A DNA stretch of 64,000 nucleotides from a virus: the IMG/VR virus record IMGVR_UViG_3300045988_183322. One strand, given 5' to 3'. This document shows, one piece after another, positions 33,757 through 59,106 of the stretch (the first letter of the stretch is position 1; every line of letters begins with the position of its first letter). Both the position numbers and the translations under genes were made by a program. The notes under the pieces were generated by a model. It was not told the origin of the DNA. It did not search any database and was given only the letters and a program-made list of their open reading frames with translations.

Positions 33757-35448
33757 TTGATGAAACAAGAGATAAGAAGGCTATTTAAAGGAATACATCA
33801 TCCAAGAACTTTACATAAAATACTCAAGGACAATCCAGAGATAGTTGAGTACGCCAAAAGTGAAATAGAGAAATATTCGTATTATGAAAAAGTCGGATAT
33901 TATATCATATCTATAGCAAACGACATTGAGATAAAAAAGTGCCCTGTTTGTGGAAAAGAATTAAGCTATACTCAATGCATAAAGAATAAAAAGATATTTT
34001 GTAGTAGGTCTTGTTCAGCAACATATCAATTTTCTCATAAAAAAGATGCCTCTAAAAAAAAGCGTAGTACAGTAAAGTTACCTGCTCTTCCTTTATTTCC
34101 AATAAATGAAAAGGTAACATTGAGTAAACTAAGATGCCTGTATGCAGGAGCCGATATTACAAGGCTAAGATATGTAATAGCAAAGAACTCTTCAATCTTA
34201 TGTTTTTGCCAAAAAGCATTAGAAAAACATAAGGAATATCAAACAGAACAAATATTTCTTTACTGCATAATAAATAATCTAAAATTAAAAAAATGTAAGT
34301 TATGTGGAAAAAAGATGAACTATTATAAGTCCTATACTAGGCCAACATTTTATTGTTCATCAAAATGTAGTCACGCATCTTCTTCTTATAAAGAAAAGCA
34401 ACAAAAAAGTCATAACGATAGAAAATACGAAATATTAGTTCAGAGAGCCAGAGAAAAAAATTATGGAGTAATTACTCTTCGAGATGATTATAAGACTTCA
34501 AATCAAATTGAACTAAAGTGCTTAAAATGCAATAAAGTTTTCTCATCTCCATTATTGAATATATACAGAGACATGAGATGCCCATCTTGCGATAAAGTCT
34601 CATCTTTTTCATTCGAGAAAAAAATACGAGGCTTTATCTATTCATTAAACATAGATTTTACTTACAATAAGAAAGTTCTTCCTGATAAAAAAGAATTAGA
34701 TATATTTGTTCCTTCTAGAAATATCGCTATTGAATGCGATGGTCTCTATTGGCATTCATCTAAAAATGGAAAAGATAGAAACTATCATCTAAAGAAAACA
34801 AAACAGTGTGAAGAAAAGGGGATTTTTCTAATCCATATTTTTGAAGACGAATGGAGAGAAAAAAATAAAATTGTCAAGAATCGAATTAAATATATTCTCG
34901 GCAAAGCATCTTATAAGATAGGGGCAAGGGAATGCCGTATATCTCCAATTTCTAATGATGAAAGTAAAAAATTTTTAGATAAATATCATATTCAAGGAAA
35001 TGTATCTTCTCCTGTGAGATATGGATTATTTAAAAGAAACAGGCTAATAGCTGTAATGACTTTTGGCAAAAGCCGCTTCAACAAAAATTATGATTGGGAG
35101 CTTCTTAGATATTGTACTATTCCTAATTTCAATATAATAGGTGGGGCTTCTAAATTATTAAATCATTTTAGAAACCATCATTCTGGTTCTATTATTTCCT
35201 ATGCAGATAAAAGATGGAGCGATGGAAATCTTTATAGAAAACTTGGATTTATAGAATTAAAAGACAGTCAACCAAACTATTTTTATGTCAAAGACATAAG
35301 AAGATTTTCTAGAAATCAGTTTCAAAAGCACAAACTCAAAGATATTCTTAAAAAGTTTGACCCACTAATGACAGAAAAAGAAAATATGCTTGCTAATGGC
35401 TATTCTATTATTTGGGATTGCGGAAATAAAGTGTTTTCTTTAGAATAA
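33757..35448 (+). CDS. Multi-zinc-ribbon protein with C-terminal DUF559/Vsr-like (ECDGxxWH) endonuclease-fold domain; possible homing-endonuclease-like gene
   Basis: Three CxxC...C/CxxC modules (CPVCGKE, CKLCGKK, CLKCNK...CPSCDK) then IAIECDGLYWHSS. Confidence 0.4.
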   Translation: MMKQEIRRLFKGIHHPRTLHKILKDNPEIVEYAKSEIEKYSYYEKVGYYIISIANDIEIKKCPVCGKELSYTQCIKNKKIFCSRSCSATYQFSHKKDASKKKRSTVKLPALPLFPINEKVTLSKLRCLYAGADITRLRYVIAKNSSILCFCQKALEKHKEYQTEQIFLYCIINNLKLKKCKLCGKKMNYYKSYTRPTFYCSSKCSHASSSYKEKQQKSHNDRKYEILVQRAREKNYGVITLRDDYKTSNQIELKCLKCNKVFSSPLLNIYRDMRCPSCDKVSSFSFEKKIRGFIYSLNIDFTYNKKVLPDKKELDIFVPSRNIAIECDGLYWHSSKNGKDRNYHLKKTKQCEEKGIFLIHIFEDEWREKNKIVKNRIKYILGKASYKIGARECRISPISNDESKKFLDKYHIQGNVSSPVRYGLFKRNRLIAVMTFGKSRFNKNYDWELLRYCTIPNFNIIGGASKLLNHFRNHHSGSIISYADKRWSDGNLYRKLGFIELKDSQPNYFYVKDIRRFSRNQFQKHKLKDILKKFDPLMTEKENMLANGYSIIWDCGNKVFSLE

Positions 35449-47601: not shown

Positions 47602-49025
47602 AAAACTAATCTGGCAACAATAGATTCAATACTTTCTTTCTTCTCATGAGAAAAACCTAAGGATGAACTTTCTTCATCAATAGTTAAATAAAATAGGCAA
47701 AATGAAGAGAATGATTTTTTATTAGCCTGTAAAGAATGAAGCTTCAGATATGCCCCATAAGAATCTAAAATATCTATAGCTTTATCAGGATATTTTCTAT
47801 TCTTAAAAAACTCTTCGCAAATACTAATAATATTTTTAATAGTATTTTTGCCGTATCTAATTTCATGATACTGTTCGAACTTCTCTTTTATACCATTAAG
47901 AATTATTTTGACAGAATCAACAGTAGGCTCATCTATTTCAAGAGTAGAAAATCTCCTTTCTAAAGCAGAATCAGGATATATATATTCATTATATTCTTGA
48001 TAAGTTGTCGCACCTATGCAGATAATCTTACCCCTAGATAAATAAGGTTTAAGAATATTAGACAAATCACAAGAATCTTGAACTGATTTGCCGCCAGCAC
48101 CAACTATCATATGTATTTCATCAATAAATAAAATAATATCATCTCTTAATTCGAAATGATTTAATATTTTAGAAATTCTTTCTTCTGCTTGGCCTCTATA
48201 AGAGGTTCCAGAAATAAGTTGACATATATTCAAAGAATAGATTTCTCTCCCATCTAAAGACCCGTTTTCACCAATTCCATTGACAATATTATAGGCTAGT
48301 CCTTCAACAATTGCTGTCTTACCAACACCTGCTTCACCAATGAGAATGCAATTCGGTTTATTTTTCTTATTTAAAATATGAACAATTTTCGAAATTTCTT
48401 TCTCTCTTCCAATTGCTGGATGATGGGGATAATTTTTTATTTCATCTGTTATATTATGAAAATAAGAAAAAATATTATCATTTTGTGCAAACTCATTTTC
48501 ATCAAACTTTACGCTTTTTTCATCTGATAAATCCAAAGCAGATTCTTTGCTGTCATAAGAAAGAAAAGAATTGATAGCACTTTTTTTACCATAAAAACAG
48601 CACTCTACAGCCTTCAAAAATTCAATTAAATCTTTGCAATCGAAAAACAATGAACAAAAATCTTTGCAAGTAGAAGAGTTTTCCAATAAAAATTTTAATA
48701 AGTGCTCTTTTCGTATATCGTTTCTGAGGTCCTTCCCGCAATTATAAAATATAGAGCTTAAATATCCACTAACATCATCGTTGGAAATAACATCATTATC
48801 TATCGACCCTTCTACAACAGAAATATGTGGGTCTAACTCGTTTATCCGTTTTAAAATAACATCTTGAGAGATATTTCTATTTATCAAATAATCAGAAATG
48901 AAAATTGTTGGTTCATTAAAAATAATGAATAAAAAGCATTTTAAAGAATCAATTCTACATTTCTCCTTTTGAGAAAAAATATACAATTCTTTTACAAGGG
49001 TCGAAAAACAATCGTTATTCTGCAT
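47598..49025 (-). CDS. Clp-family AAA+ ATPase, N-domain + single D1 module (ClpA/B/C-like, truncated)
   Basis: CILIGEAGVGKTAIVEGLA (Clp D1 Walker A), ILFIDEIHMIVGAGG (Walker B/sensor). Confidence 0.6.
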   Translation of the reverse strand: MQNNDCFSTLVKELYIFSQKEKCRIDSLKCFLFIIFNEPTIFISDYLINRNISQDVILKRINELDPHISVVEGSIDNDVISNDDVSGYLSSIFYNCGKDLRNDIRKEHLLKFLLENSSTCKDFCSLFFDCKDLIEFLKAVECCFYGKKSAINSFLSYDSKESALDLSDEKSVKFDENEFAQNDNIFSYFHNITDEIKNYPHHPAIGREKEISKIVHILNKKNKPNCILIGEAGVGKTAIVEGLAYNIVNGIGENGSLDGREIYSLNICQLISGTSYRGQAEERISKILNHFELRDDIILFIDEIHMIVGAGGKSVQDSCDLSNILKPYLSRGKIICIGATTYQEYNEYIYPDSALERRFSTLEIDEPTVDSVKIILNGIKEKFEQYHEIRYGKNTIKNIISICEEFFKNRKYPDKAIDILDSYGAYLKLHSLQANKKSFSSFCLFYLTIDEESSSLGFSHEKKESIESIVARLVL

Positions 49026-52000
49026 CTTTTAAATCAGCAAATCTAGAATAAATCTTTTCTTCTACAATTGAAAGACCTGTAACAAAAACAATATCTTTAC
49101 TCTTTGAGCCAACGACAACAATTATATTTCCATCATGGGGGCGTTTACCGCCATTTGCAATATAATTACTTAGAGTAAGAGAAGGGTTTCTTCCATTTCG
49201 GGAATCCATCATTAAACACATGACTTTGCCTTTATCATCATTTATGGAAAAACGCCAATATTTTTCTCCATTCTTTTTGGATTTCCCCTCTTGAAAATCA
49301 TCAGAAGCCCATCCAACTATCTTAACTGTAGTATATTCTGCTAACTGTTTAATCTCTTGACAGTCTGTCATAGAAGAGCTTTTATCAGCAAAAATGTCTT
49401 TGACGTTTTTAGAATAAGCATAACCTAATACTCTTTTTTCATAATACCAGTCTGCAAAATCTGGCATTTTATTATTCTGTTCATAAATAGCTTTAAACTT
49501 TCTGCATTTATCTTGTAGAGATGAAAATCCACCACGGAATAGAACTCTTCCATTGGAGTCTCTAGTTTCGTTTTTAACGCAATCTGAAATAATCAACAAT
49601 AAATCAGGCTCATCTTGTGAAGATTCATTCAATTTATTTTTATAAATTGCAAAAACAGCGTCTCTTTGGCGCGGAGTTAGAACATTTATTACTTGCAATG
49701 TATAAACCATGTAACAACGTTCATGACCATTCAAGAAACTATCAAATAACCCAGCTTGAGCGAATGAACTTAACACTCCAATAGATAACCCAGCGCGTTT
49801 AGCGGAATTATAGATATCACAAATATCTCTTTGAGTATCATTTCTAAAATTAACTACTTTTTGAAGCGTTTGAGCGGAAACACCTTTAATAGATGCTAAA
49901 CCATACCTTATATTGTCGCCTTCAATAGCAAAATGAAGATGGGAATTAGCTAAATCAGGAGGTAGCAACTTTATACCAAAATAAGGAAGTTCTTGAGAAA
50001 TTTTTTCAATTTCAGCAAACGGGTCTGGTTCAGCATTAGCTTGCTCTAAAAGGGTACAGAAGAACTCTTTAGGAAACCAATATTTCAAATAAACTGTTTT
50101 TGCGGCTGTAGCGGCATAGGAAATGCTATGCGAATTAGAGACTACAACACCATTACAATAAAAATTATGGTCGGGGGAATCTACCTCTAAATCAATGCAA
50201 TCTTCAAACTTGATGTTCGAAAACTCTTCAAGTTCGGCTTCGCCAGATTCGGTCAAAATCATATGTGTTGGGGAGCCATAAGAAAGAGCATCATTCAATA
50301 TCTTGATTATTTCAATCATCTTGAAATTCTCACTATCAAGATACTTATGACGGAAAGACGAACGAATTTTAAATGTCTCAGAGACTTCTGTATAAGAAAA
50401 TGGACCATCTGCAAAACTTTCGTAAACAGATAATTTAAAATCGGCTAATACATTTTGGCTCTTATAAATATTAACCACTTTAACGAAATAGTCTTTCTTT
50501 CCTTTAACATCAAATGCCTTAATGGAGTCGCCAATTTTAACCTTTGAAAGAGGAATTTTTTCGCCAGATTCTAATTCTACCGTATTATTAAGGCCTAAAC
50601 ATCTATTAAAAGAGTAATTTGCAGACTCTTGGCATACATGCCAAAAATACAAAGCGGCTTCTTCTGAAATGCCATTCTTTTTAGCCCCATCAAGAATCTC
50701 TTGTTCAAACTGAGGCATCTTTTCCACCTGCTTCTTACCAACACATTTCCTGAGCGCATCAGCGCGTTCGAGAGTAAACCCAAAAATCTTGTGAGCAATA
50801 TTCATTAACGTCTCTTGGAATAAAAGAATGCCTTTTGTCTGGCCCAAAAGCGAATCCATATGTTCATCACCAGACGGGCGCATTTCGCCAGTATTCTTAG
50901 CTTTCACATAATCATTCACATAAGCCAAAGCGCCCGGACGTGCAAGAGCCACCACGTCAGAAAGTTCATCTAGATTATCAGGAGCTACCACTTGAGCGAC
51001 ACGATAATTTGTATCAGATTCAATCTGAAAAAGGCCTTTAGGCATTAAGTATTCATTGATATATTTATAGATTTCTGGATTTCTATAATCAATGTCCTTA
51101 TGATTAATGCCAAGCATATCGCAAGTTTCTTTAATTTGAGTAAGAGTCCTTAAACCTAATAAATCAAACTTGGTCATAATTTCGGCCACTTCTCCCATTT
51201 CAAACCCGGAGATTAAATCTCCTTCTTTTGTAGTTTGAAGAGGCATAGTTTCACTCAAAGGAAAAGCGCAAATAGCAATTCCCGATGGATGAACACCAGT
51301 ATTCTTATTCAAATTCTCTAATTTTAAAGAAATAAGATAAATCTTTTCATTAGAATTACAAAATTCTTTAAATTCTTTCGAAGTTTCATAAGCTTCTGAA
51401 AGTGGACGAACAACACCATATTTCTTAGGAATCAAATCAGAAATTGCCTTAGTGTCTTCTTCATGATAACCACCAGCTAATTTCATCGTTTCCTTAATAC
51501 AAAGTTTACCTGATAATGTGCTAACTGTCAAAATTTTGCAAGCATTTCCATTAAAACGTTGGAAAACGAAATCTACAACTTTTGACCTATCTGAATAAGA
51601 AATATCCAAATCACAATCAGCAAGTAATCCGCCATCCAAATAAACTTTACCATCTTTGCCAATTTTCTTTTGAGCACGAGCCATTGAAACAAATCTTTCA
51701 AAAATGAGATTATGTTCAAGAGGGTCAATGCCAGTAACACCAGTGAGGTAGAAAACTAAGCATCCTGCCGCTGAGCCTCGCCCATCACCAACTGGAATAC
51801 CAGAGGAATTGCAAAATCTTACAATTTCTCGGTTAAGAAGCATATAATCTATAAATCCACAAGCTTCAAGAACTTCTAATTCATAATCCAATCTTTTTTT
51901 GTAATCTTCAAAATTGGGAAGATTATCAATTCCTAATCTTTTAAATCCATTCTCGCAAAGAGCTTTTAAAAAATCATATGAAGAACAATTTCCATCTAAA

Positions 52001-53547
52001 CCTAATTGGATTGCTTCATCTTGGGGAATGTCCGCTTTAGGAAGTATAACTCCTTCCAACATAGGAGTATCATAAATTTGGTTATTCTCAATCAGTTTTT
52101 GAGAATATTCGTTCTCAAGAGAAAGAGAATAATCCTTGTTGATAAAACATGTTTCATTTTCTAAACCTAAAGCTCTTATAAGGCGAATGAATAATTCACC
52201 TGTCATTTCAGTGTCAACAAGGGCATCATGTAATTTATCTTCTTTATACTTGATGCCAAATTTATCAAGCATAGAACTTAATTTGACAGAGATTCTACCT
52301 TTCGGCTTAAAATTAAGAAGCTTATAGCAAAACTCAATCATAGTTTCATTTTCAGAACGATGGAAATTGAGTAGATAAGCCCTAGAAAGGGGAACAGTAT
52401 CTATACATTTATAAAGGAAAGAATAGTCTTCCAGATAACCAATGCATTTTCTTGCTATATTTAGAATAAAAATATCAAAACCAATGATATTTTGGCCTGC
52501 CAGAATTGTGTCTGGTTGATAAATTAAATTCCAAAATTTATCAATAATTTCTTTAGGATTTTCTTTCTTTACATCATATACTTTTTTATCAAAACCTGTT
52601 ACAGCCGCCGCTTCTTTTGAAACATTTAAATTATCCCATGCAAGATAATGCATTTCTTTGTTGAGAACCTTGCCATTTTTCATTTCGACCCAAGCAATCT
52701 GCCAAGGGCGGGAGGTTCTCAGATTCAATCCTTCGGTTTCTGTATCGAAAAGAATAATCCTTTTGTCTTTTAAAGAAAAATCTTCTTTAGGATGATAATT
52801 GAAGCTACATTTTCTATTTTCTTTCCAATCCTCAAAACAAAATTTATTACTACCAAAATGAGGGAGATTAGGTTTGTCTAAAGTGCTATTCCCATAAACA
52901 GAACGCCCACATATTAATCTATATACTGTGTAAGAATCAAAATCATCATAATTTTCATAATAGATTGATTTGCAAAATACGATGCGATTTTCATTGATGG
53001 AGCAATATTGTTTTACTCTATCTTGCACAATATCATCAAATGGATGACAATTATTTTCAACGCAGACAAAAGGAGACTTAATGCCGAAATCGGGCAAACA
53101 ATTCGATAGAGTCAAACAATTTTTTGCAATAAAAGAATCGTAGAATGGTAAACCGAAATCTATGTTGGACGAGCTGTCCCAAATATCTCTAAGAATCTTA
53201 TAATCAATACATTTTTTATCATTGGTGTGAACCGAGGTATAAAGCTTAATTAAGTCTTTGTAGCCATCATCATTTTTCATAATGGCTATCATTTTACAAC
53301 GCGAACTAACTATATCCTCATAAGATTCTTCTAAAGAATTACAAATATCGAATCTAATACCATAAATTAATTTAATGCCAGTCTTTTTGCTCAAACGTAG
53401 GGCTTCTGGAAACCCTATCATCATATCCTCAATAAGAACAACAGAATCAAGTCTATTATCTCCTGCTAAACGGAATACATCACTAACAGTTAAAATAGAT
53501 TTCCCTATTGAGTTGTGAGTCTTAAAGAATGGAATCGCATCTGGCAT
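49015..53547 (-). CDS. dnaE: DNA polymerase III alpha-like (DnaE/PolC family) with N-terminal PHP, fused DEDDh 3'-5' exonuclease, and a mini-intein
   Basis: FDTETEGL (Exo I) and HDALVDTE (Exo III); joined exteins give YSFNR|SHSISYAATAAKTVYLKYWFPKEFF, matching the DnaE FNKSHSAAYA motif. Confidence 0.7.
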   Translation of the reverse strand: MPDAIPFFKTHNSIGKSILTVSDVFRLAGDNRLDSVVLIEDMMIGFPEALRLSKKTGIKLIYGIRFDICNSLEESYEDIVSSRCKMIAIMKNDDGYKDLIKLYTSVHTNDKKCIDYKILRDIWDSSSNIDFGLPFYDSFIAKNCLTLSNCLPDFGIKSPFVCVENNCHPFDDIVQDRVKQYCSINENRIVFCKSIYYENYDDFDSYTVYRLICGRSVYGNSTLDKPNLPHFGSNKFCFEDWKENRKCSFNYHPKEDFSLKDKRIILFDTETEGLNLRTSRPWQIAWVEMKNGKVLNKEMHYLAWDNLNVSKEAAAVTGFDKKVYDVKKENPKEIIDKFWNLIYQPDTILAGQNIIGFDIFILNIARKCIGYLEDYSFLYKCIDTVPLSRAYLLNFHRSENETMIEFCYKLLNFKPKGRISVKLSSMLDKFGIKYKEDKLHDALVDTEMTGELFIRLIRALGLENETCFINKDYSLSLENEYSQKLIENNQIYDTPMLEGVILPKADIPQDEAIQLGLDGNCSSYDFLKALCENGFKRLGIDNLPNFEDYKKRLDYELEVLEACGFIDYMLLNREIVRFCNSSGIPVGDGRGSAAGCLVFYLTGVTGIDPLEHNLIFERFVSMARAQKKIGKDGKVYLDGGLLADCDLDISYSDRSKVVDFVFQRFNGNACKILTVSTLSGKLCIKETMKLAGGYHEEDTKAISDLIPKKYGVVRPLSEAYETSKEFKEFCNSNEKIYLISLKLENLNKNTGVHPSGIAICAFPLSETMPLQTTKEGDLISGFEMGEVAEIMTKFDLLGLRTLTQIKETCDMLGINHKDIDYRNPEIYKYINEYLMPKGLFQIESDTNYRVAQVVAPDNLDELSDVVALARPGALAYVNDYVKAKNTGEMRPSGDEHMDSLLGQTKGILLFQETLMNIAHKIFGFTLERADALRKCVGKKQVEKMPQFEQEILDGAKKNGISEEAALYFWHVCQESANYSFNRCLGLNNTVELESGEKIPLSKVKIGDSIKAFDVKGKKDYFVKVVNIYKSQNVLADFKLSVYESFADGPFSYTEVSETFKIRSSFRHKYLDSENFKMIEIIKILNDALSYGSPTHMILTESGEAELEEFSNIKFEDCIDLEVDSPDHNFYCNGVVVSNSHSISYAATAAKTVYLKYWFPKEFFCTLLEQANAEPDPFAEIEKISQELPYFGIKLLPPDLANSHLHFAIEGDNIRYGLASIKGVSAQTLQKVVNFRNDTQRDICDIYNSAKRAGLSIGVLSSFAQAGLFDSFLNGHERCYMVYTLQVINVLTPRQRDAVFAIYKNKLNESSQDEPDLLLIISDCVKNETRDSNGRVLFRGGFSSLQDKCRKFKAIYEQNNKMPDFADWYYEKRVLGYAYSKNVKDIFADKSSSMTDCQEIKQLAEYTTVKIVGWASDDFQEGKSKKNGEKYWRFSINDDKGKVMCLMMDSRNGRNPSLTLSNYIANGGKRPHDGNIIVVVGSKSKDIVFVTGLSIVEEKIYSRFADLKDAE
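50134..50601 (-). mobile_element. Mini-intein (156 aa) in the DnaE-like polymerase, inserted in the conserved FN(K/R)|SHS motif
   Basis: Starts CLGLNNTVELESG (block A, Cys1 at 50599-50601), ends IDLEVDSPDHNFYCNGVVVSN (blocks F/G) with +1 Ser; penultimate Ser instead of His; no endonuclease domain. Confidence 0.65.
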
Positions 53548-55999: not shown

Positions 56000-58450
56000 T
56001 TAGAATGGAACAGTATAACCTTTCTCTTTTTTTATGGGGGTATTATTAGCAGAGAACGAACGAACAATATCTCTTAAATCTCCTTTATCTTCAATAGAAA
56101 AATTCTTAAAATCTAAATTAATGGAATTCCTTCTTACTGAACCATCAGGCATATTTACTAAATTTAAATATCCGCTAACATCTTCACCAAGAAATCTTCC
56201 TTTAATGAAGATTAATTTATGAGTCCCAAAATTGGGGCCTTGCAATTTATATTCGTCATTAGTGATATTTCTTAAAATAGCACAATGTGAAGCATAATGA
56301 ATCAACCTATCAGAAAGACCAAAAACATTTTCCGAATCTTCCATTTCATTGAAGGTTTTTTTAGCAACAATCCCCAACTTATTAGACTGAACAGAAGTCA
56401 ACATTGAAATAACAGGTTTCCTATCAACTTTAATTTCATCATGGATAAGAGTCTTAAACTTATCCATCAAGCGGCCTAAATATTGATGCTCCTGCTCATT
56501 AAATGTTCCATTTTGGGAAGGTTTCATATAGTCATAACAGAAAATCATCTGTCCACCATGACAAACATTGTCATAAAAGCTCTTTATCAAGTCTCTCATT
56601 TCTTCATAACTTTTCCCCGCTACTTGATAATAAAACATTTCTTTTCCTTCTGTTGCTAACAAAGCTTGTTTCAATTTAGCAACACTCTGAGGAGACTTGC
56701 ACCATTTACCAGACTCAATATCATAATAATTAACGCCGCTCAAAGCCGATAAACGCCTATATTGCAACTCGCGTTCTGACATTTCGCCATTATCAAAATG
56801 AAGGATAGGAACCTTATAAGTTTCAGAAACTTTAGTCGCAATATCCATTGTTATTTGCGTATTATGAGTCAATATATTATTTTCCAATAAGAATAAATGC
56901 GATGGATTATTGACTAAAATACAAGTACAGGATAATTTACCGATTGGCCGTGCGTCATATATTTTAATATAATCTTGAACATAGCGACTATGAATTCCAA
57001 CTTTATTTTTGCAAAGTTTATACTCTCCATATTTGCTAGTGAAACAAGTTACATCAAACTTTTTCTTTTTCGAAGAAAAATTAACCTTTCCAAATCCGCC
57101 AACAGAACGAAAAATATTAATAATTAAATTCGCATATTCATTATCTTCCGTAGAAAATCTAATTTTAGTTTTTATCCCTAATCTATCGTCCTTAGCGAGA
57201 CTCAAACTAGAATTATCTGTCTGAATATAAAATTGAGGATTTTCTCTGATATATTCTTTAATAAAGAATACCCTTCCATATAAAGGAAATCTTTCAAAAT
57301 CTATTTTATCTAAAGCTCTATCTTTTAATCCTTCCATATCTGGAAAAAGATTAGAAAGATGCTCATATTCTTCATCCTCAATTTTTCCATCTCTAAAATA
57401 TTTCCCAAGAAGAACGTAGTCTTTTCTTTCGGCTTTTTTATAAATATTCTTTTTGACGAAATAAGAAGTAGGAATATAAAGTTTTTCTCCCCCTTTCAAT
57501 CTGCGGGCAATTTCAGCAGAAGTAATAACTTCTATTTTCTTTTTCTTATTGATGAAACTGCAAACTTCCCAAAGATGGTCATAGGAGCTTACAGTAGGAT
57601 TTCTACTATCCTCCCAATAAAATTTAATCATGTTCTTTCTTCCTTGAGGAAAAACACCTAAAACTCGCGCTTTTTGTCCTTTAACAGAAAAAACTTCATT
57701 CCCCTTTTTTAGGTCGCAAATGCGCTTTAGAGACCCATCTGCCATACGAACATTTTCATAATCGGCCAAAGCTTTTCCAACGCCAGAACGAGAAGTAAAA
57801 AGAGTGATATTGCCCGGTCTAGTAAGAGAACCAAAGATATTCTGAACAGTGGGATAAGGGCATGGATAGCCCTTCGTTGAAAAATCCTGATTTTTTGTCT
57901 CTTCTAAGGCTTCTGCAATATCTTGATAAATATTAATAGGTCTATCTGAACCTCTATCGACTCTACTTACGCATTCTGAAAATATTTTTTCAGCTTTCGA
58001 AATTGATATATTAGGATTATCAAAGGGGGTATTTAAAAGATTATATTGAATTTCAGAAGTTGCGATAAAAATCTTCCTTCGGACAGAAGCTTCTTTTAAA
58101 ATATTAGCTAGCCCTTTATGATTATCATCTCTGATAATCATAACCCCTAAAGATTCAATATACTGACTAATGTCCATATTGGCAACACTAGTCAAACGGA
58201 CAACACCAGAGTTTTTTATTTCATCAATAACAGCAGGGATAGAAACATACTTATATCTATCGAAACATTTTAGACATAAGTCATAAACAGTTTTATTTAC
58301 GGTGTCGCTCCCATTTTCAAAATCATCTTTTTTTAAAATAGTAACAACATCATCAATAACACCTCTTCGCGTCAAAATTAAAGCAAGCAAGCTCTTTTCG
58401 ACGCCTAAAAGATTAAATTTCTTATTGAAAATATCTCTATTCATCCTCAA
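56000..58450 (-). CDS. dnaB: DnaB-family replicative helicase interrupted by an intein in the Walker A P-loop
   Basis: Spliced P-loop SRSGVGK|TQITMDIA = GVGKT; downstream FDNGEMS and RRLSALSGV (DnaB H1a-like); DnaB-like N-terminal domain. Confidence 0.65.
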   Translation of the reverse strand: MRMNRDIFNKKFNLLGVEKSLLALILTRRGVIDDVVTILKKDDFENGSDTVNKTVYDLCLKCFDRYKYVSIPAVIDEIKNSGVVRLTSVANMDISQYIESLGVMIIRDDNHKGLANILKEASVRRKIFIATSEIQYNLLNTPFDNPNISISKAEKIFSECVSRVDRGSDRPINIYQDIAEALEETKNQDFSTKGYPCPYPTVQNIFGSLTRPGNITLFTSRSGVGKALADYENVRMADGSLKRICDLKKGNEVFSVKGQKARVLGVFPQGRKNMIKFYWEDSRNPTVSSYDHLWEVCSFINKKKKIEVITSAEIARRLKGGEKLYIPTSYFVKKNIYKKAERKDYVLLGKYFRDGKIEDEEYEHLSNLFPDMEGLKDRALDKIDFERFPLYGRVFFIKEYIRENPQFYIQTDNSSLSLAKDDRLGIKTKIRFSTEDNEYANLIINIFRSVGGFGKVNFSSKKKKFDVTCFTSKYGEYKLCKNKVGIHSRYVQDYIKIYDARPIGKLSCTCILVNNPSHLFLLENNILTHNTQITMDIATKVSETYKVPILHFDNGEMSERELQYRRLSALSGVNYYDIESGKWCKSPQSVAKLKQALLATEGKEMFYYQVAGKSYEEMRDLIKSFYDNVCHGGQMIFCYDYMKPSQNGTFNEQEHQYLGRLMDKFKTLIHDEIKVDRKPVISMLTSVQSNKLGIVAKKTFNEMEDSENVFGLSDRLIHYASHCAILRNITNDEYKLQGPNFGTHKLIFIKGRFLGEDVSGYLNLVNMPDGSVRRNSINLDFKNFSIEDKGDLRDIVRSFSANNTPIKKEKGYTVPF
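56861..57772 (-). mobile_element. Intein (304 aa) with Ala1 and class-3-like W/C/T features, in the DnaB P-loop
   Basis: Starts ALADYENVRMADGS, block B TVSSYDHLW, block F LSCTCIL, block G NNILTHN then +1 Thr; middle region may be a degenerate homing endonuclease. Confidence 0.6.
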
Positions 58451-58692
58451 AATCAGAAAAAGGATATCCTACAGAACAATAATTAGCATCATATTCTGCA
58501 ATCATATTTCTTATGTTCTGAATTAAGCCATCAAAAATGACTCCTTCTCCAGCCTCATATCTGCAAACTTTTCCATTCTTGTCGCAAGCAAAAAGAATAT
58601 ATCCTTTGAATTCTCCTGATGCTGAACCAGAATATTCATATATGACCTTTCTTACTTCGGGAGGAATTGCCTCCAATTTTTCGCAATCCATA

Positions 58693-59106
58693 CTATAATT
58701 CCACGCCAAATTTGTTCAGAATTTCGTTTCTATCCAATTTATCGTTTGGATAGATTTCAACAAGAACTATACCATTCCTTTCGCAAAACTCAAGCTTTTT
58801 CCCATCTCTCTCTATCTGATTCAGAAAATTCACTTTTGAATTACTATGTAAAAATGGAGAATATCTTGCATGTTGCATGCCTTGAACTTCGACAGCTATT
58901 TTTTTTGTATAATTATAAAAATCTATAGAGAGCTTTGTTCCAACAACAGGAAACTCTTCATATACAAAATCATATTTCCAATAATCATTTAAGAACTCCT
59001 TAACTCTAGTTTGGAATTTACTTCTAGAGTTGGCCTTCCAATCTACTAAAAATCTTTCAGGCCTCTTTAGAGATTTAGTTTTACCATTTAAAGCAATAAA
59101 CTTCAT
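58693..59106 (-). CDS. DUF559/Vsr-fold endonuclease-like protein
   Basis: IAVEVQGMQH resembles the E-x-DG-x-x-H motif. Confidence 0.35.
   Translation of the reverse strand: MKFIALNGKTKSLKRPERFLVDWKANSRSKFQTRVKEFLNDYWKYDFVYEEFPVVGTKLSIDFYNYTKKIAVEVQGMQHARYSPFLHSNSKVNFLNQIERDGKKLEFCERNGIVLVEIYPNDKLDRNEILNKFGVEL

Follow-up and report, generated by a model that had tools for sequence, protein, structure and literature searches.

Why does a phage replicative helicase carry 304 additional residues inside its Walker A motif, and does the gene still give rise to a working enzyme? The question is posed by the dnaB gene of IMG/VR virus record IMGVR_UViG_3300045988_183322, of which a stretch of 64,000 nucleotides (the window) was analysed here. 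A preliminary description, made from the sequence alone, had read the insert as a class 3-like intein that splits the DnaB helicase's P-loop. The combined results make it highly probable that what occupies the DnaB-b P-loop site of this tailed-phage replicative helicase is a class 3 intein able to splice, with a homing endonuclease that has decayed.

The insert in the Walker A motif

Several profiles identify the host gene. In the 816-aa open reading frame (ORF), Pfam placed the DnaB N-terminal domain at residues 15-120 and DnaB_C at residues 530-670, TIGR00665 covered residues 16-670 in one alignment that spans the intein gap (E 9e-23), and PHROG 19, 'DnaB-like replicative helicase', matched with an E-value of 2.6e-21. 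By these matches the product of the ORF is a DnaB-family replicative helicase. Minus-strand translation of 56861..57772 gives exactly 304 aa, ALADYENVRMADGS...NNILTHN, preceded by ...TSRSGVGK and followed by TQITMDI..., which places the insertion between the Lys and the Thr of the Walker A motif (GVGK^A...THN^T, carets marking the junctions). The proposal that removal of residues 227-530 rejoins GVGK^T was correct, as the deletion yields SRSGVGKT, a Walker A motif; the numbering itself holds when counted from the TTG start, and from the ATG at 58444 the intein comprises residues 225-528.

A homologue search with the whole ORF returned three groups of proteins. Seven were full-length (804-820 aa), one identical to the window's protein and six 46-87% identical over the whole protein, and these six retain the intein with its catalytic residues and the same order of genes. 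A further 11 proteins, 496-508 aa long, are intein-less and matched the helicase parts only, while the third group consists of one 867-aa protein (P0008) with a different insert in the same place. The junction was checked in eight of the 11 intein-less homologues (P0009, P0010, P0012-P0014, P0016, P0018 and P0019; alignment A1), all of which read SRSGVGK^T(Q/N/T)F without interruption, with zero residues lost or gained. According to these alignments the boundaries of the insert are exact to the residue. Homologues in which the segment forms a contiguous helicase domain were looked for and not found; the eight aligned short homologues lack the insert. Coordinates of the gene and of the parts of the insert are collected in Table 1.

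Table 1. Positions in the window of the dnaB gene, its exteins and the parts of the insert
Feature	Coordinates	Strand	Remarks or basis
dnaB precursor ORF	56000..58450	minus	816 aa from TTG 58450, 814 aa from ATG 58444; ORF list, Pfam, TIGR00665, PHROG 19
N-extein, aa 1-226	57773..58450	minus	DnaB N-terminal domain, linker and first half of Walker A; ends SRSGVGK
Predicted class 3 intein, 304 aa (ALADYEN...ILTHN)	56861..57772	minus	Residues 227-530 of the 816-aa ORF
Hint N-lobe, intein aa 1-105	57458..57772	minus	Blocks A and B; hidden Markov model of 75 intact relatives, model pLDDT 88-98
Ala1	57770-57772	minus	Hint N-lobe codon
Ser63 (B:7)	57584-57586	minus	Hint N-lobe codon
His66 (B:10)	57575-57577	minus	Hint N-lobe codon
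Trp68 (B:12)	57569-57571	minus	Hint N-lobe codon
Truncated LAGLIDADG-type endonuclease remnant, intein aa 106-262 (157 aa)	56987..57457	minus	A3 profile, hidden Markov model, structure model
LAGLIDADG motif 1, RKDYVLLGKYFRDG	57386-57427	minus	
LAGLIDADG motif 2, candidate placement 1, RVFFIKEYIRENP	within 57236-57283	minus	Favoured by A1 and the model
LAGLIDADG motif 2, candidate placement 2, SLSLAKDDRLG			Favoured by A2 and A3 (MAFFT)
Hint C-lobe, intein aa 263-304	56861..56986	minus	Blocks F and G
Cys282	56927-56929	minus	Hint C-lobe codon
Cys284 (F:4)	56921-56923	minus	Hint C-lobe codon
Thr302 (G:5)	56867-56869	minus	Hint C-lobe codon
His303	56864-56866	minus	Hint C-lobe codon
Asn304	56861-56863	minus	Hint C-lobe codon
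C-extein, aa 531-816 and stop	56000..56860	minus	Begins with Thr531 (56858-56860); the remainder is the RecA-like ATPase domain

The class 3 signature

Class 3 inteins have no Cys, Ser or Thr at position 1, carry a Trp-Cys-Thr (WCT) triplet at positions B:12, F:4 and G:5 and usually have Ser or Thr at position +1 (PMC2807308, PMC5050341); their definition and splicing mechanism are described in PMC2807308. The residues on which the preliminary description had based its class assignment were all recovered. The insert starts with Ala1 rather than Cys or Ser, and the DHLW string of block B corresponds to D65-H66-L67-W68, with the Trp at B:12. The SCTCIL string of block F (S281-C282-T283-C284-I285-L286) contains two cysteines, of which the second is the catalytic position, and ILTHN (residues 300-304) ends the insert with T302-H303-N304, followed by T531. 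With the W/C/T triad, the terminal His-Asn and Thr at +1, the class 3 signature is complete. Cys284 aligns with Cys107, the engineered D107C of gp41-1_WCT (PDB 6RIZ; gp41-1 with C1A, F65W and D107C), and for this reason Cys284, not Cys282, was assigned to F:4. Thr531 serves two roles, as the Thr of the Walker A motif and as the +1 nucleophile position. His66, Trp68, Cys284, Ile285, Thr302, His303 and Asn304 are invariant in alignment A3, and Ala1 is found in six of seven members of the window's intein clade, the other (P0007) having Ser1. The class 2 (KlbA-type) combination of Ala1, Cys at +1 and Asp at F:4 with no WCT triplet was not found, as +1 is Thr, F:4 is Cys and the triplet is present. 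Taken together, the sequence evidence supports the assignment of the insert as a class 3 intein at the P-loop of a phage DnaB.

The clade member with Ser1 (P0007, 804 aa) is an observation in its own right. Its junction reads GIGK^SLANFEQ, and the Trp, Cys and Thr are kept, giving a natural class 3 signature combined with a possible N-terminal nucleophile.

The assignment was extended by an exhaustive phmmer search with the insert against 1.84 billion cluster representatives, which returned 1503 proteins with E<=1e-3, among them 39 with E<=1e-10, a kinship that at the sequence level is far beyond chance. Catalytic positions were mapped in 195 of the matched proteins; outside the window's clade these hold 218 intein copies in 176 proteins, with a median size of 345 aa. 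His at B:10 and Cys at F:4 occur in all 218 of these related copies, Trp at B:12 in 215, Thr at G:5 in 216 and the full WCT triplet in 213. GK stands directly before the intein in 195 copies, Ala occupies position 1 in 158, and the +1 residue is Thr in 194 and Ser in 22 (each out of 218). The hosts are many kinds of P-loop ATPase, with Pfam labels for DnaB_C, AAA/Clp, SNF2, RecA-like and helicase families, and terminase as well. The statement that class 3 inteins are characteristic of phage DnaB P-loops was therefore not wrong in spirit, but it is too narrow, given relatives in DnaB, Clp/AAA+, SNF2, terminase and RecA-like P-loops. Among phage records the matches lie chiefly in terminase and helicase genes; a tblastn search of 50,697 such records gave no close DnaB homologue in cultured phages, as all it matched were inteins of terminases and helicases that are 22-26% identical to the window's intein. 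No NCBIfam model matched the intein, and on the single sequence Pfam placed Hom_end_hint below its cutoff (19.9 vs 32.1 bits).

Fold and profile matches to solved inteins

An AlphaFold model of the intein alone, built with 32 aligned sequences, showed a Hint plus endonuclease architecture with a predicted local distance difference test score (pLDDT) of 88.9 and a predicted template modelling score (pTM) of 0.86. The model of the whole 816-aa precursor (16 sequences) was poor (pLDDT 64.6, pTM 0.38) and was not used for the fold search. With Foldseek, the top match in the PDB was PI-SceI (E 3e-14, query-normalised TM up to 0.65), followed by other endonuclease-bearing inteins; for PI-SceI and these together the query-normalised TM was 0.58-0.65. 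Mini-inteins matched with E-values of 1e-5 to 1e-3, the Hint domains of MchDnaB-1, Msm DnaB class 3 and gp41-1 at ~1e-5, and the target-normalised TM was 0.78-0.82 for MchDnaB-1 and the Msm class 3 DnaB intein.

A profile made from alignment A3 (18 inteins) was searched against all PDB sequences. The strongest of the matches considered here was gp41-1 with the grafted WCT (6RIZ, E 4.7e-23), followed by PI-SceI (E 4e-19), wild-type gp41-1 (6QAZ, E 3.3e-18), the class 3 M. chimaera DnaB-1 (6RIX, E 9e-18) and the class 3 M. smegmatis DnaBi1 (6BS8, E 2.3e-15). The model and these matches support a Hint-fold intein.

For wild-type gp41-1, which belongs to class 1, the class 3 P-loop profile gave as strong a match as for the solved class 3 DnaB inteins, and the strings VFP..K, EHL and ILTHN are common to them. 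This match is relevant to the argument, made in the literature, that class 3 is not a direct offshoot of class 1 (PMC7664689).

Selection and inheritance

The ratio of non-synonymous to synonymous substitution (dN/dS) was estimated by the Nei-Gojobori method for the window against its two closest relatives, L001 and L007. It was 0.034 and 0.067, respectively, for the exteins, 0.091 and 0.088 for the Hint N-lobe, 0.077 and 0.066 for the Hint C-lobe, and 0.228 and 0.208 for the endonuclease remnant, values that are rough since dS is ~1 even for the closest pair. Against the closest relative, the N-extein alone gave 0.029 and the C-extein 0.038. The exteins and both Hint lobes are under purifying selection. 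A helicase that is split in its Walker A motif and yet kept under such strong constraint must be restored by splicing, and on these sequence grounds splicing is very probably active.

The intein evolves faster than its host at non-synonymous sites, with dN 1.7- to 4.4-fold above that of the exteins. Identity to the window in five relatives was 0.77, 0.77, 0.47, 0.47 and 0.29 for the intein and, in the same order of relatives, 0.94, 0.87, 0.84, 0.78 and 0.68 for the exteins. The fall of both series in the same order fits co-descent, and the sequences are thus consistent with an intein that is now inherited vertically with the helicase gene, not by homing.

The endonuclease remnant

The suggestion that the insert is large enough for a degenerate homing endonuclease was borne out by what lies between the Hint lobes, a shortened region of LAGLIDADG type. 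The A3 profile aligns this middle region to the LAGLIDADG domain, blocks C to E, of PI-SceI. In relatives the endonuclease consensus reads DPYxLGxLxGDG ... KFIP ... GLMDTDG ... SxxLAxDVxxLxRSLGG, of which the window retains motif 1 as DYVLLGKYFRDG and, later, STEDNEYANLIINIFRSVGG. Motif 1 in the window (LLGKYFRDG) keeps its Asp, surviving as RDG. A hidden Markov model (HMM) of 75 relatives in which both motifs are intact matched window residues 3-137 (E 5e-24) and 201-304 (E 2e-15) only. HMM positions 136-228, which comprise the first-half sheet, block D and motif 2, have no significant counterpart in window residues 138-200, a segment with 30 aa fewer, and the C-terminal part is another 14 aa shorter than in the intact relatives.

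Motif 2 is not recognisable. Neither of its two candidate placements ends in an acidic residue followed by Gly, the first would leave 50 aa between the motifs vs a median of 95.5, and the segment of the second varies within the clade. In the structure model, motif 1 is followed by helices only (residues 116-175) and then by a single complete strand-strand-helix-strand-strand-helix half (residues 182-253); the two complete halves that make up a DNA-binding saddle were not found in it. Pfam LAGLIDADG had no match in the window's intein. The remnant is the most AT-rich part of the dnaB gene (GC 0.278, GC at third codon positions 0.185), the window as a whole having a GC content of 0.328. Judged from sequence and model, the endonuclease is very probably catalytically inactive.

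A related helicase lineage offers an intact counterpart. P0008 belongs to a lineage that is otherwise intein-less. Its class 3 intein, at the same site, is of full size, starts with Met1 and has both LAGLIDADG motifs intact, and LAGLIDADG_3 does match there. It is only ~20% identical to the window's intein, which suggests an independent invasion of the same target site.

One may then ask whether the window's intein is itself still mobile, either through a shortened LAGLIDADG domain that is active, perhaps as a dimer, or through a neighbouring free-standing nuclease that cleaves in trans. The Asp of motif 1 is kept in five of the seven clade members (Asp-Gly is gone in P0006 and P0007), and the one remaining half is modelled with high confidence, both in favour of activity; against it stand the unmatched first-half sheet, block D and motif 2, the 30-aa shortening and the variable motif 2 candidates. 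A dN/dS of ~0.2 in the remnant, rather than 1, and an intact-looking LAGLIDADG intein at the same site in P0008 would be in keeping with continued homing, whereas the parallel rise of intein and extein divergence fits vertical descent. A candidate for cleavage in trans is the nearby 137-aa ORF, which matches PHROG 'HNH/homing endonuclease' families, yet its size and position hardly change among the relatives, unlike those of a mobile nuclease gene. We consider continued mobility improbable and prefer the reading of an intein that splices and whose endonuclease has decayed.

Proposed splicing route

The model of splicing suggested for this intein has the following form, each step being taken from characterised class 3 inteins, while the anatomy, catalytic residues, family membership and selection come from the present analysis. 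The 814-816-aa precursor would be made with its Walker A motif split and would be unable to act as an ATPase, and the two Hint lobes would fold around the active site. As Ala1 offers no nucleophile at residue 1, Cys284, aided by His66 and packed by Trp68, would attack the Lys226-Ala227 bond to give a thioester branched intermediate. The N-extein would then be transferred onto the side chain of Thr531, Asn304 would cyclise with the assistance of His303 and free the intein, and an O-to-N shift would form the Lys-Thr bond, restoring GVGKT in a helicase of ~510 aa (510-512 aa as predicted from the sequence).

A class 2-like or other route, in which Thr531 attacks the N-terminal junction directly and Cys284 only assists, with no branched intermediate on it, is conceivable in so far as Ala1 also occurs in class 2 KlbA inteins and in a model of the Bethlehem intein Thr+1 lay hardly farther than the block F Cys from the scissile bond. 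Class 2 inteins, however, have Cys at +1, Asp at F:4 and no WCT, and the F:4 Cys, absolutely required in characterised WCT inteins, is present in every one of the 218 related copies, alongside Trp B:12 and Thr G:5. This route is very unlikely to be the one used. Equally implausible is a dead intein or permanent extra domain, in a dnaB copy that is non-functional or that works without losing the insert. In its favour, the endonuclease is clearly in decay and WCT alone was insufficient for splicing in an engineered intein. Against it, 304 aa between the Walker A Lys and Thr are incompatible with nucleotide binding, the residues at the splice sites do not vary even in relatives whose inteins are only 28-32% identical, dN/dS in the two closest pairs is 0.03-0.07 for the exteins and 0.07-0.09 for the Hint lobes, and the scanned ORFs, ~half of the large ones in the window, showed no second gene of the DnaB family.

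Some points weigh against the class 3, splicing-competent reading and should be set beside it. Searched as a single sequence, the insert has no significant match to the solved class 3 inteins (E 0.08-0.9, 6RIX included), and because of this the link to them rests on the family profile and the fold. The placement of motif 2 differs between the alignments (A1 and the model on one side, A2 and A3 on the other), leaving the exact lesion of the endonuclease uncertain, and to this is added the roughness of the dN/dS values. Splicing itself, the branched intermediate on block F and the inactivity of the endonuclease are all inferred.

Cys282, two residues before the catalytic Cys284 (Cys282-Thr283-Cys284, 56921..56929, minus strand), is kept in six of the seven clade members and in six of 11 more distant relatives, and B:7 is Cys in 67 of the 218 related copies. 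From its sequence context, a redox or metal site formed by Cys282 and Cys284 is possible. A more speculative proposal, to which we assign a low probability, is that the intein acts as a conditional switch on maturation of the phage helicase. The Cys282-Cys284 pair would be a redox- or metal-sensitive trap, similar to the Cys48-Cys118 disulfide of M. smegmatis DnaBi1, and the half-LAGLIDADG remnant, still under purifying selection (dN/dS ~0.2), might have been retained to serve after homing, for instance in folding or splicing control.

The replication module and its neighbourhood

The window encodes tail proteins (L and J-like) together with replication genes, and its source is on this gene content an uncultured tailed phage. 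Besides DnaB, the window encodes a Pif1-like helicase, a primase, a UvsX-like recombinase, an AAA+ ATPase and polymerase III alpha. The five relatives recovered with DNA have a common gene order: RecA/UvsX-like recombinase, a 136-137-aa ORF, a small ORF, dnaB with its intein, DnaG-like primase, PD-(D/E)XK nuclease and DNA polymerase III alpha. The start of dnaB is uncertain by two codons (window 58442..58450), since the identical database protein P0001 (814 aa) begins at the ATG at 58444, two codons inside the ORF. Called starts vary among the relatives (MNKDIF, MSINKDIF, MGINKDLF), and a 90-aa ORF upstream, 58437..58709, overlaps the dnaB start.

The 137-aa ORF (58693..59106, minus strand) is flanked by dnaB and the gene for the UvsX-like recombinase. 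It has matches in PHROG families labelled HNH or homing endonuclease (best E 4.9e-14) and none in Pfam. Its equivalents are 136-137 aa long and near-constant in size and position in 5/5 relatives examined, and it is probably a fixed nuclease gene rather than a mobile one. It was considered as a free-standing homing endonuclease that aids mobility of the intein, and this role was rejected as unsupported, given the constant size and place and the lack of a Pfam match, even though PHROG favours a nuclease.

The DNA polymerase III alpha gene (49015..53547, minus strand) has an insert of its own, unrelated to that of dnaB and 156 aa long (aa 983-1138; 50134..50601, minus strand), where the sequence reads SFNR^CLGLNNTVELESGEK...NFYCNGVVVSN^SHSISYAA. 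The L008 orthologue lacks it and reads SFNR^SHSISYAA. With Cys1, a terminal Asn and Ser at +1, the insert looks like a class 1 mini-intein, although Pfam did not flag it at E<=0.01. The polymerases of L001 (10739-14445), L003 (10585-14433) and L005 (10593-14463) have an extra intein elsewhere (ALRK^CVSG...VIHN^CVGK), which looks partly deleted in L003 and is lacking in the window and L008. These differences indicate that intein occupancy of the replication module varies between close relatives, and the module evidently collects inteins, with one in dnaB and a second in the neighbouring polymerase gene.

Elsewhere, a 563-aa ORF (33757..35448, plus strand), on the opposite strand to most genes, shows weak similarity, below the Pfam thresholds, to the restriction-endonuclease-like MTES_1575 domain, to the Mom family and to Lar restriction alleviation. 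A role in anti-restriction or DNA modification is possible for this gene, which is unrelated to the intein.

Significance

The intein is real and was correctly read, but it is ordinary, a new member of a large and well-described family. With this locus the very large family of class 3 P-loop inteins gains a phage clade, one where the intein appears to have persisted vertically while the endonuclease decayed. The main practical consequence is for annotation of the dnaB ORF, for which gene callers give a long DnaB or a hypothetical protein; the predicted mature helicase has ~510 aa, with a Walker A motif that would be intact only after splicing. The intein may also be of use in protein engineering as one more natural class 3 scaffold with Thr at +1. 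Beyond correct annotation the finding matters little, and current understanding is unchanged.

Comparison with known inteins

PI-SceI, TliVMA and PI-PfuI resemble the window's intein in that a LAGLIDADG endonuclease interrupts the Hint domain. They differ in being class 1 inteins (Cys1) of at least 454 aa with a complete two-motif endonuclease, whereas in the window's intein the first-half sheet, block D and motif 2 cannot be recognised. Of the solved structures, gp41-1, from a cyanophage-like gp41 helicase (6QAZ, and 6RIZ with the grafted WCT), gave the best match in sequence, the single sequence matching 6RIZ with an E-value of 0.0018. The two have in common VFP..K, EHL, ILTHN and Thr at G:5, but gp41-1 belongs to class 1, having Cys1, Phe at B:12 and Asp at F:4, is 128 aa long in the solved structures and has no endonuclease domain. 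WCT-grafted gp41-1 does not splice (PMC7664689).

Class 3 inteins at the DnaB P-loop GK^T site have been described before. The 'classic' P-loop intein site lies between the invariant Lys and the nucleophilic Thr (PMC5050341), M. smegmatis DnaBi1 occupies 'insertion site b' of the DnaB P-loop with a +1 residue that doubles as the P-loop Ser (PMC6195587), and the modelled N-extein of MchDnaB1 is SVGK (PMC7664689). The mycobacterial DnaB-b class 3 mini-inteins (M. smegmatis DnaBi1, PDB 6BS8; M. chimaera DnaB-1, PDB 6RIX; M. leprae DnaB) thus sit in the same host protein and at the same point after the Walker A Lys as the window's intein. Ala1, the WCT triplet, the His-Asn and a +1 Ser or Thr that doubles as a P-loop residue are common to both. 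The mycobacterial inteins differ in their size of 139-145 aa, in a linker that takes the place of the endonuclease and in their location in bacterial chromosomal dnaB, and pairwise similarity to the window's intein is low (phmmer E 0.08-0.9; ~10% identity in Foldseek). At B:7, Msm DnaBi1 has Asp vs Ser63 in the window, and its redox partner Cys48 has no counterpart shown in the window's intein.

The DnaB intein of mycobacteriophage Bethlehem, the class 3 prototype, was compared by its published description and differs in Gln-1/Pro1, meaning a junction other than GK^T. It is likewise found in a phage DnaB, lacks an N-terminal nucleophile and has Ser at B:7, His at B:10, Trp at B:12, Cys at F:4, Thr at G:5, a terminal Asn and Thr at +1. 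At 341 aa, the Bethlehem intein, like that of the window, holds an endonuclease-sized insert between blocks B and F.

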